Source: a candidate division FCPU426 bacterium | Lineage (GTDB): Bacteria; Oederibacteriota; Muellerivitia; Muellerivitales; Muellerivitaceae | Assembly: GCA_963796105.1 (NCBI GenBank) | Contig: CAWCKJ010000004.1 | Span: 1,216,001 to 1,280,000 of the forward strand | Length of the DNA: 64,000 nt | Direction of reading: 5' to 3' | In this document: positions 43,063 through 62,755 of the stretch, in pieces | How the letters are laid out: every line of letters begins with the position of its first letter | Numbering within the stretch: the first letter of the stretch is position 1 | Position numbers and translations under genes: made by a program | The notes under the pieces: model-generated | Told to the model about the DNA's origin: nothing | The model's input: the letters and a program-made list of their open reading frames with translations, nothing else | Databases searched by the model: none

Positions 43063-43146
43063 CTTATCCTCAATTTAAACTTACCCTTTAGCTTCCAATT
43101 AATTCTTCGCATTTATAGAGTAAATTGTTCCTATGATACCTCTTCT

Positions 43147-43530
43147 TAGTTCTCATCCAACCCGGGACAACTTAAAATAAAAAAGGGGTCAGAAAGATTC
43201 GAATGGCTTACCCGGATGCGCAAAGCGCTCACGGGGAAATACAGCTCTCCGGGTGAAAATCGAACCTCAATTCGCTCTCACAAGGGAAGAGACCCCTGTG
43301 TACCCCAATGAACAACATGGGGAACCCTTTCACCATACCCCTTCTTGGTTCTCGTCCAACCCTACTTCAACCTGGGAAGTCACAAAAGCAAATAGACCTC
43401 CCCGGGGGACATCGAACCTCGCTTCGCTCTCACAGGGGAAGTCGACCCCTATGTACCCTAGTGAAAGGCCTGAAAACTCCCGTTTTCAGACTTTCCCGCT
43501 GGTTCTCGTCCAACCCGGCAAGGCAGAAAA
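43147..43530. repeat. tRNA-Asn-linked repeat elements (two clear copies 43244-43362 and 43398-43518, plus degenerate pieces)
   Basis: Each copy has CTC(C/T)CCGGG..TCGAACC (tRNA 3' end), a shared core, and an inverted T-arm copy GGTTCTCGTCCAACCC. Confidence 0.75.
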
Positions 43531-43533
43531 AAG

Positions 43534-43571
43534 AAAAGGGGCCAATCTCTATAAAGAGATGGCCCCTTTTT
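43534..43571 (-). terminator. Intrinsic terminator downstream of tRNA-Asn
   Basis: AAAAGGGGCCAATCTCT-ATAA-AGAGATGGCCCCTTTT hairpin with A/T tails. Confidence 0.75.
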
Positions 43572-43577
43572 CACTTC

Positions 43578-43652
43578 TGGCTCCCCGGGTTGGACTCGAA
43601 CCAACAACCCTCCGGTTAACAGCCGGATGCTCCACCATTGAGCTACCGGGGA
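43578..43652 (-). tRNA. tRNA-Asn(GTT)
   Basis: TCCCCGGTAGCTCAATGGTGGAGCATCCGGCT-GTT-AACCGGAGGGTTGTTGGTTCGAGTCCAACCCGGGGAGCCA. Confidence 0.97.
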
Positions 43653-60890: not shown

Positions 60891-61020
60891 CCGCGCCCCG
60901 CCGTGGAAGCCAGGTTACCCACAACACCCGAACACATGCCTTACCGTTGCTTCCTTCCGGACCTAGCGGAGTTGGGGCCGGCTCGCCGTATAGGACCCGA
61001 CTTCCACGCCGGGGCGCGGA
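60891..61020 (-). ncRNA. ffs: Signal recognition particle RNA
   Basis: Domain IV CCGCTAGGTCCGGAAGGAAGCAACGG; closing stem CCGCGCCCCG/CGGGGCGCGG; directly upstream of dnaX. Confidence 0.9.
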
Positions 61021-61163: not shown

Positions 61164-61279
61164 GGAGATGGAGGGAAACGAGCCGCGCGGAGCGCTCACA
61201 AGTGAAGTGACCCTTATGTAACCCATTGATCATCGTGGGGAAGCCTCTTCCCCATACCCCTACAGGCTTCGAATCCTCC
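61164..61279. repeat. tRNA-Ser-linked element (same family as the Asn/Arg copies)
   Basis: GGAGATGGAGGGAAACGAGCC (degenerate Ser 3' end), core, inverted T-arm GGCTTCGAATCCTCC. Confidence 0.7.
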
Positions 61280-61294
61280 ATTATTTATGAAAAT

Positions 61295-61387
<93 letters not shown>

Positions 61388-62119: not shown

Positions 62120-62678
62120 TGATAAATAGTACATGCCAATTTTTATTAAAATTAAGTTAATTGAACTTGGTACTGCGCCACTCTCTTTATTTCAAGTTGC
62201 AAACAAAGTTTGCAACAACTTCAATGATAAAATGGTGCGTGCCTATTCTTCCGAAAAGAATTAAAGAAATCGGTACGGCGCCATTTTCTTTAACTAAAGC
62301 CGCAAATTTTGTTTGCGGCAACTTCAAAGATAAAATGGTGCGTGCCTATTCTTCCGAAAAAGAATTAAAGAAATCGGTACTGCGCCACTTTCCTTATTTC
62401 ACGTTGCAAACAAAGTTTGCAACAACTTCAATGATAAAGTGGTGCGCCTGGAGGGACGTTGAACCGCGCTTCGCGCTCATAGGGGAAAGCCCCCCTATGT
62501 TACCCCCTTTAAGACGCGGGGGCTCACCCCCGCACCCCCACGGTTTCAAGTCCTTCATTGTTTATATAAAAAATGGTGCGCGCCAATTCTCATTAAAGCA
62601 ATTTAATTGAAATTGGTACTGCGCCACTCTCTTTATTTCACGTTGCAAACAAAGTTTGCAACAATTTCAATGATAAAG
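62120..62678. repeat. tRNA-Arg-linked tandem ~105-bp hairpin repeats with one embedded tRNA-linked element (62440-62557)
   Basis: Four units GGTAC(T/G)GCGCCA...GTTGCAAACAAAGTTTGCAAC...GATAAA(A/G)TGGTGCG (central hairpin is GCCGCAAA..TTTGCGGC in unit 2). Confidence 0.85.
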
Positions 62679-62755
62679 TGGTGCGCCTGGAGGGACTTGA
62701 ACCCCCAACCTACTGGTCCGTAGCCAGTCGCTCTATCCAATTGAGCCACAGGCGC
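62679..62755 (-). tRNA. tRNA-Arg(ACG)
   Basis: GCGCCTGTGGCTCAATTGGATAGAGCGACTGGCT-ACG-GACCAGT..GGTTCAAGTCCCTCCAGGCGCACCA. Confidence 0.97.

Follow-up and report, generated by a model that had tools for sequence, protein, structure and literature searches.

The tRNA-Asn gene of the window (the whole stretch of 64,000 nucleotides that was analysed) is followed by two tandem units, each holding an inverted (antisense) copy of the end of that gene. The question raised by this locus is what kind of element carries the end of its neighbour, and how that end comes to match another gene at another location. The initial annotation reported four units, two in tandem at tRNA-Asn and one each at tRNA-Ser and tRNA-Arg; all four were found where it had placed them, and they align over a core of two hairpins. 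Since the three tRNA genes are on the minus strand, the units lie downstream of them. They belong to a family of gene-less hairpin elements of ~100-180 nt located behind tRNA, tmRNA and some protein genes and terminators. The suggestion of a non-autonomous family with a common core and target-matched arms is supported by the data presented below. The model which we favour, with a probability of about 0.55, postulates a single-stranded, non-autonomous element that uses its antisense arm to find an 11-nt target, inserts immediately 3' of it and makes the gene whole again with its left end.

The units in the window

Read on the minus strand, which is the tRNA-sense strand, the order is: gene end, spacer or terminator, antisense arm, hairpin 1, hairpin 2, then often a GC-GAA-GC mini-hairpin, a degenerate arm and a second gene end. 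In symbols this is Z/Y-spacer-antiZ-hairpin1-hairpin2-tail-Z*/Y', where Z is ~11 nt of the target (tRNA positions 52-62, or in lpdA the first codons of the HPHP motif), Y is the remainder of the gene end, Z* is a degenerate copy of Z and Y' is the second, downstream copy of the gene end. The features are the following.

43578..43652, minus: tRNA-Asn(GTT), the target gene; positions 52-62 (T arm) are Z, 64-76 are Y
43534..43571, minus: terminator-like hairpin flanked by A and T runs (by eye and predicted fold)
43397-43518, minus: Asn unit 1, whole
43501..43518, minus: Asn unit 1, antisense arm; T-arm complement with GA replacing TC at positions 57-58
43469..43490, minus: Asn unit 1, hairpin 1; structure conserved, sequence variable, C-GGGA-G loop
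43431..43458, minus: Asn unit 1, hairpin 2 with GGGTA foot; most conserved part of the core
43421..43427, minus: Asn unit 1, GCGAAGC mini-hairpin tail
43407..43418, minus: Asn unit 1, right arm Z*; T-arm copy with an extra T after A58
43397..43406, minus: Asn unit 1, Y'; second, degenerate copy of the tRNA acceptor 3' strand
43244-43362, minus: Asn unit 2, whole
43347..43362, minus: Asn unit 2, antisense arm
43317..43336, minus: Asn unit 2, hairpin 1
43279..43305, minus: Asn unit 2, hairpin 2 with foot
43244..43266, minus: Asn unit 2, right arm and degenerate tRNA end
43204..43239, minus: probable remnant, hairpin-2 tail and acceptor-type arm ending GCCA (by eye)
43105..43166, minus: probable decayed unit, Asn antisense arm followed by a degenerate hairpin 2 (by eye)
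61297-61387, minus: tRNA-Ser(GGA) (ARAGORN)
61164..61279, minus: Ser unit, whole, behind tRNA-Ser(GGA)
61265-61279, minus: Ser unit, antisense arm
61236-61254, minus: Ser unit, hairpin 1
61197-61223, minus: Ser unit, hairpin 2
61164-61184, minus: Ser unit, right arm and degenerate end
62679-62755, minus: tRNA-Arg(ACG) (ARAGORN)
62440..62556, minus: Arg unit, whole, behind tRNA-Arg(ACG)
62542-62556, minus: Arg unit, antisense arm
62516-62533, minus: Arg unit, hairpin 1
62478-62504, minus: Arg unit, hairpin 2
62454-62465, minus: Arg unit, right arm
62440-62453, minus: Arg unit, tRNA end, an exact 14-nt copy

ARAGORN reports tRNA-Asn, -Ser(GGA), -Ala and -Arg(ACG) on the minus strand. The hairpin at 43534..43571, which was not called by a consensus terminator scan, forms the apex of a long fold-back between the tRNA-Asn end and the antisense arm. 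Both remnants are downstream of the Asn unit pair; the one at 43204-43239 resembles acceptor-type Asn units of relatives and the one at 43105-43166 scores below the model thresholds. A strict core pattern matches the window twice (mean 0.00 in 100 shuffles). No Rfam family covers the units at gathering score, the matches in the window being tRNA and SRP RNA. Folding of single units gives modest z-scores, from -0.2 to -4.1.

A second repeat module is located behind tRNA-Arg(ACG), at 62160-62680: it has, in tandem, a hairpin with a GCAAAC..GTTTGC loop region and, after it, copies of the acceptor strand that are degenerate and stand in both inverted and direct orientation, and similar units are present behind tRNA-Arg(TCG) on contig C8. 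The SRP RNA gene at 60905-61002, between tRNA-Ser(GGA) and dnaX, is ordinary.

Structure of the core

Covariance models were run on the source genome and its relatives, and both hairpins covary. In an alignment which was fitted to the model and in which related copies are not independent, 95.4% of the cells are paired, with 456 double changes; 0/500 shuffles are as high, and slid controls give 38-62% paired. G.U pairs are few. Hairpin 1 loops of the form C-GNA-G or C-GNNA-G occur in 59/169 copies on the sense strand and in 0 on the opposite strand, and G.T wobbles number 74 vs 31 for A.C. These loop and wobble asymmetries indicate that it is the minus strand (tRNA sense) which folds.

Subterminal hairpins in direct orientation with a conserved 5' foot are present at both ends. 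The foot is GGGGTAC in 72/169 copies and GGGTAAC in 26/169, and the hairpin linker is 16-17 nt in 127/169. The tail is GCGNAGC in 91/171 and GCGNNAGC in 21 more, vs 0.27% of random windows. Mini-hairpins of the GCGNAGC type are far more stable as DNA than as RNA according to the accessible part of PMC13037366. Loops, wobbles and the DNA-type tail favour single-stranded DNA as the folded form, with room left for RNA because 52 of the 169 loops are GNRA, which fits RNA equally.

Copies in the source genome and in relatives

In the source genome a short-core HMM gave 42 matches at E<1 (41 at E<=0.08), and the reversed genome used as control gave 2 (E 0.57 and 0.66). The covariance model R1, which is the core without arms built from 12 training copies, gave 16 matches at E<=6e-5, 12 being the training copies. 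Fourteen of the 16 are behind tRNA-Asn, -Ser (three genes), -Arg, -Leu, -Glu, -Val, tmRNA and a displaced tRNA-Gln end, separated from its gene by ~9 kb and by an island that encodes two tyrosine recombinases; the other two are at a terminator-like hairpin. The majority of the tRNA genes of this genome have no unit.

The remaining matches consist of hairpin 2 alone, a shorter form. When set against empty copies of two host repeats, it shows up as a 46-nt insert with at most 1 nt duplicated. It fills 7/36 and 9/49 copies of these two abundant repeat families, and such insertions are spread across contigs C2-C12 (G000; e.g. L008:200-300). By analogy, so clean an insertion would be that of a peel-and-paste transposition.

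Two further observations were made in the same genome. A tandem unit at tRNA-Ser(CGA) (L009, G000:C4:439900-440450) has the same logic, with a terminator, an antisense T arm and a 12-13-nt direct end, on a different core which the model does not match. Gene-less left ends of a GIY-YIG-like cassette appear to lie behind the last Ser(TGA) unit.

R1 matched in 23/24 genomes of the same family, and a core model rebuilt from 123 matches did so in 29/30; outside the family the rebuilt model gave weak matches alone (E>=2e-4), in 6/68 other genomes of the phylum. A metagenome scan added 9 core loci, all with the same layout, and a scan of a genome collection 2 core loci, matching family genomes. The sample used below consists of 171 matches, 169 of them distinct, from the loci of most listed matches.

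The enrichment at tRNA genes which had been predicted was found: 95/171 matches lie at most 420 nt behind a tRNA or tmRNA gene called by ARAGORN, all of them on the strand of that gene (opposite strand, 0), and further copies beyond the 95 are behind shortened tRNA genes. Two protein genes, lpdA and argC, have the same core with locally matched arms at their 3' ends. It also occurs at terminator arms (the genes in front were taken by eye to be rplL, ribonucleotide reductase and glnA), within palindromic repeats and ahead of tRNA 5' ends, and in the rpmB leader it lies antisense. The initial description of the family as tRNA-adapting needs correction: because the core sits at protein-gene ends, terminators, palindromes and tRNA 5' ends too, the family is target-adapting and not tRNA-specific.

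The nearest relative of a core is at the same target in 89/159 cases (6.7% expected) and at a different target in 70/159; the target classes were assigned by crude patterns (at least 3/18 "terminator" rows are mis-sorted) and 12 rows classed "other" were left out. Target-specific lineages therefore exist, and retargeting is frequent. The orientation of 30 non-tRNA copies agreed with local GC skew in 15/30, i.e. no link, the skew itself being noisy. Units nested within units of the same family were seen at L157, L163, L170, L175, L179 and L101.

The arms

Arm specificity was examined by scoring the 95 tRNA/tmRNA-linked family matches against the 47 tRNA/tmRNA ends of the source genome. For the downstream arm the cognate tRNA scores above all non-cognate ends in 72/95 units and is in the top tenth in 87/95; for the short antisense arm the numbers are 41/95 and 65/95, respectively. 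The arms are thus matched to their targets, as had been claimed from the units in the window.

Both arms of a unit cover the same 11 nt. The antisense arm matches tRNA positions 52-56 and 59-62 at 0.81-0.98. The swap of TC to GA in it is common to units at several different tRNAs with a TTCGAG loop, and therefore this part of the arm travels with the element. In T-loop units the downstream copy matches positions 52-58 and again from 64 onward (0.92 at 64, and 0.49-0.65 at 59-63), often with an extra pyrimidine after A58. It should be noted that this junction analysis kept 51/95 units, those with at least 9/12 matches at tRNA positions 65-76, and that the identities at these positions are inflated for that reason. 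Units of a second class, found at tRNA-Asn and tRNA-Glu, have their start in the acceptor strand.

Filled and empty alleles

At tRNA-Asn 25/27 loci are readable. Twelve have a unit directly behind the gene and 1 a decayed unit; otherwise there is an apparent island end (6), a GIY-YIG cassette (2), nothing (1) or a contig edge (3).

The lpdA alleles offer a handle at the codon level which tRNA sites cannot give. Of 29 readable loci, one per genome, 8 are filled, and filled and empty states coexist within three genera. Ten filled loci, from the 8 genomes and 2 metagenome contigs, were compared codon by codon. Between Y and Y' there are 58 synonymous changes and 21 non-synonymous ones, and a single frameshifted copy accounts for 10 of the 21; a decaying duplicate is expected to show 35% synonymous changes (nominal p 4e-12 in a test that counts related loci as independent). 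The peptide PTLxEIF is identical in 9/10 loci. The first three codons, which are Z* and lie under the antisense arm, are changed in 4/10, a pattern as at the tRNAs.

The initial annotation had proposed that insertion duplicates its target. The lpdA data speak against this: the second copy of the gene end looks like one that once worked and was displaced, and with differences that are mostly synonymous, replacement of the end fits better than a decaying duplication. The simplest reading of these codons is that both ends were functional until recently, i.e. that an incoming end may have replaced the resident one. The proposed comparison of filled and empty alleles was fruitful in part, since both states were found and a signal that Y' is the native end is clear in one comparison only. 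In this case, G046, Y' agrees with the empty allele of the relative G003 at 28/33 sites and Y at only 23, and the downstream flank likewise matches the empty allele. In the four remaining comparisons neither end is preferred or Y is the closer one (28 vs 28, 29 vs 27, 22 vs 22 and 22 vs 16).

Search for an enzyme and a vehicle

The 100-180 nt units encode no gene and hence no integrase. Of 189 flanking ORFs 168 were scanned with Pfam; they gave housekeeping genes, ORFs without a family, one helix-turn-helix fragment of a transposase and two integrases, each of which precedes its tRNA and is not part of the unit. A link with RAYT or integrase genes, which the initial annotation had considered, was not found at the loci described here. 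The core was absent from 30 Y1-transposase loci (of ~105 listed matches), from 30 tyrosine-recombinase loci, from 15 IS110 loci and from 15 reverse transcriptase loci; the source genome has no reverse transcriptase, and six family genomes that carry elements have no match to Y1_Tnp. Tyrosine recombinases are present in 5/5 genomes searched. For Y2 transposase the count was 0/5 and the integron integrase TIGR02249 was unmatched in 31/31 genomes, the control being silent in both searches. At 1/30 GIY-YIG loci a core is near, the locus being a neighbouring cassette with its own repeats.

Two candidates were rejected. Hairpin 2 is present at 2 overlapping loci of 9 with DUF559, which we read as insertion into palindromes, and one hairpin-2 copy lies 250 nt from the RAYT gene of the source genome, a gene having its own inverted repeats.

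The core was found in 0 viral contigs in three scans and in no phage, and plasmids gave 2 chance 26-nt matches. Four DNA contig sets with small shares contained no informative circle or excision junction. One hairpin-2 copy, a single case, is located between ardC and a serine recombinase gene in G045.

Some observations on neighbouring mobile elements are added here. The G045 copy (L317:11600-12100) belongs to a highly structured stretch of an integrated element; this stretch may be a leading region that functions as single-stranded DNA. The Y1 transposase matches of G000 (16 loci) are mostly RAYT-like, of ~318 aa, and at the one Y1/RAYT locus inspected (L008) the gene is flanked by its own terminal inverted repeats. 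Small GIY-YIG genes lie in hairpin cassettes directly behind tRNA-Asn ends in three relatives (L232, L247, L217). Tyrosine integrase genes ending just upstream of tRNA 5' ends were seen at L024, L043 and L319 and, in G000, at C2:3239, C15:52478, C3:914443 and C4:440809, and fragments of tRNA 5' halves elsewhere (L061, L079); these integrase genes appear to mark islands which restore the tRNA 5' half.

Models for the origin of the arms

The favoured model combines two assumptions: that the units are a mobile, gene-less element, which we regard as very probable, and that the antisense arm is a guide, for which we would give even odds. The calculated pairing of the antisense arm is stronger with the real T arm than with Z* in 42/47 units with DNA energies (46/47 with RNA energies), as for a guide. 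The unit from Y to Z* would be cut from a single strand, the lagging-strand template or a strand of a transcription bubble, as a circle, and this folded single-stranded DNA circle would be the moving form. An enzyme supplied in trans would bind hairpin 2, the antisense arm would exchange its weak partner Z* for the perfect Z in the target strand, and strand transfer just 3' of Z would insert the circle. The incoming Y would complete the gene and the resident end would be displaced downstream as Y'. Repeat insertion could produce tandem units, and so could recombination of Y with Y'; new targets could be gained when fold-back synthesis or mutation makes a new antisense arm.

An HUH/Y1-like enzyme is our guess, since the geometry is that of the ends of IS200/IS605 (hairpin, 5' foot and a cut site chosen by base pairing), and the assignment to the HUH type is tentative, with the odds somewhat against it. 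In its most far-reaching form the model describes a natural, re-programmable, DNA-guided integration, in which nearly any gene end can be selected by a single-stranded mini-circle through its 11-nt antisense arm, and a putative enzyme swaps in a foreign 3' end while leaving the gene unharmed; this form we find doubtful.

An alternative model hypothesizes that only a REP-like hairpin unit is mobile and that the arms are scars, not guides. After insertion near a gene end, repair synthesis would fold back at a nearby hairpin and switch template, and the product would be an inverted and a direct copy of local DNA. The left half of the units is indeed a single rod, at least 6 of the tRNA positions 64-76 pairing with the spacer in 42/78 first units, often with a terminator-like hairpin at the apex, and the predicted fold of the Asn precursor has a z-score of -7.7. 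The hairpin-2 unit does insert alone into other repeats, and the targets are very diverse. However, random decay of Y' is predicted by this model, yet at lpdA Y' keeps its peptide and the differences are mostly synonymous; units at different tRNAs share the GA swap and the additional base of Z*, which is not to be expected from local copying; and at lpdA there is no hairpin at the apex between gene end and arm. We hold the model with scars to be unlikely.

A second alternative makes the unit a domesticated RNA module, inherited mostly vertically and acting in the transcript: the antisense arm would sequester the T arm or the mRNA end and Y' would serve as an alternative 3' end, so that maturation or decay is tuned. 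The initial annotation had suggested a tRNA-processing module in which the arm nearest the tRNA pairs with the real T arm. The ability to pair is supported by predicted folds and calculated energies, the antisense arm pairing better with the real T arm than with Z* in 42/47 units with DNA energies and in 46/47 with RNA energies. In the predicted Asn precursor Y' takes over the pairing of the acceptor; behind tRNAs the units are always in sense (95 vs 0), the units are frequent at tRNA-Asn (12/25 readable loci) and many loops are GNRA. The processing function itself is weakened by the terminator-like hairpin which parts tRNA-Asn, and the gene in many other units, from the arm, and by the DNA-type mini-hairpin tail. 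Moreover, G.U pairs are few, units are also found ahead of tRNA 5' ends, within other repeats and, in antisense direction, in the leader of rpmB, presence at lpdA is patchy, and the predicted Ser precursor fold is weak (z -2.05). All in all an RNA module is improbable.

The least probable alternative, by a small step, is that a XerC/D-like or integron-like tyrosine recombinase joins a folded arm duplex to the double-stranded target by one strand exchange, with the crossover near the G-TT of the T loop as for CTX phage and integron cassettes: the inverted and direct copies, when folded, do close a stem with a central mismatch, bulge or extrahelical base, the recombinases are there in all five genomes searched, and the arm fits the 5' end of its own unit best, which we take to be reminiscent of cassette attC sites, but the targets (T loop, acceptor strand, HPHP codons, terminator arms) share no recombinase-box sequence, the core was at none of the 30 recombinase loci, TIGR02249 was silent like its control, and the common changes at tRNA positions 59-63 put the junction 3' of Z and not at G-TT. 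Strand exchange of a single pair on folded single-stranded DNA is known for CTX (PMC3442271, in the portion available).

If the favoured mechanism holds, its enzyme would be a programmable insertion tool, and lineages would have an additional way of exchanging the final codons of essential genes. Even under the alternative models the units are an undescribed structured repeat family marking 29/30 genomes of one bacterial family.

Comparison with known systems

The hairpin element is not filed under any known family because it fails a defining test for each of them. The tRNA-linked repeats of E. coli (rtT/TLR) are tandem units repeating the tRNA 3' end, like those described here; we know of no antisense arm or common multi-hairpin core in them, and the hairpin element has no match in Rfam. 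The bridge or seek RNA of IS110 has two guides, for the left and the right half of the target, in an open loop and lies beside the IS110 gene, whereas the two arms of the element cover the same nucleotides and no IS110 locus of 15 holds the core.

Genomic islands have a terminator after the replacing fragment, and so has the hairpin element. A regenerated target gene together with a displaced fragment in direct orientation is found in both. Islands in tRNA and tmRNA genes, which use tyrosine integrases, likewise show a regenerated gene at one end, a displaced fragment at the other and tandem arrays, as far as the consulted part of the Islander paper goes (PMC4383910). Unlike them the hairpin element is 100-180 nt long, has no integrase, contains an internal antisense copy of the target, and uses one core family at >20 different targets including protein genes.

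The attP of CTX/IMEX and the attC of integrons resemble the element in having inverted and direct copies which form a folded single-stranded duplex with a central mismatch (PMC3442271, PMC4792948, both in part). The targets of the element, in contrast, are not dif or attI-like and have no common box, and its core is multi-branched.

Hairpin repeats acted on as single-stranded DNA are also known from the Ssn GIY-YIG nucleases with their NTS/SRM repeats, and the available sections of that paper (PMC11893778) do not describe target-matched arms. Small GIY-YIG cassettes are likewise located behind tRNA-Asn in the host family of the element, but the GIY-YIG genes are flanked by their own, different repeats, and at the loci examined no element repeat flanks a cognate GIY-YIG gene.

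No description of the layout was found in the literature searched, although subscription journals and supplements, such as the motif tables of PMC5737381, may hold a related motif. The available parts of the GTAG/CGTC repeat survey PMC3733652, the repeat review PMC3184786, the 224-motif paper PMC5737381 and the Ssn paper PMC11893778 do not describe it, and "GTAC" is absent from PMC3733652.

The closest likeness is to the ends of IS200/IS605 and to REP/RAYT. Ends shared with a TnpA-encoding element were seen at 0/30 Y1 loci (of ~105 listed), and repeats of the family flank a RAYT gene at 0/30 loci. The hairpin-2 foot consensus of 169 copies is GGGTA-C and lacks the GTAG/GTGG foot of REP/BIME, and no TnpA or RAYT gene is linked. 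The 46-nt unit inserts without duplication, and a full unit leaves two gene ends, which we read as carried and not duplicated. Alike are, as far as the available parts of PMC6006769 and PMC5934647 go, the two hairpins in direct orientation, the conserved 5' foot, the single-strand signatures, a target apparently read by base pairing and the insertion of the minimal unit without duplication. The differences are that the guide of the hairpin element is ~11 nt, not 4, and that it carries and restores a gene end. Base-pair targeting by IS608 is natural with 4 nt and has been engineered to 12/17 nt (the same two papers, in part). Should the favoured mechanism hold, long base-pair-guided insertion of single-stranded DNA, until now demonstrated with engineered IS608 only, exists in nature.
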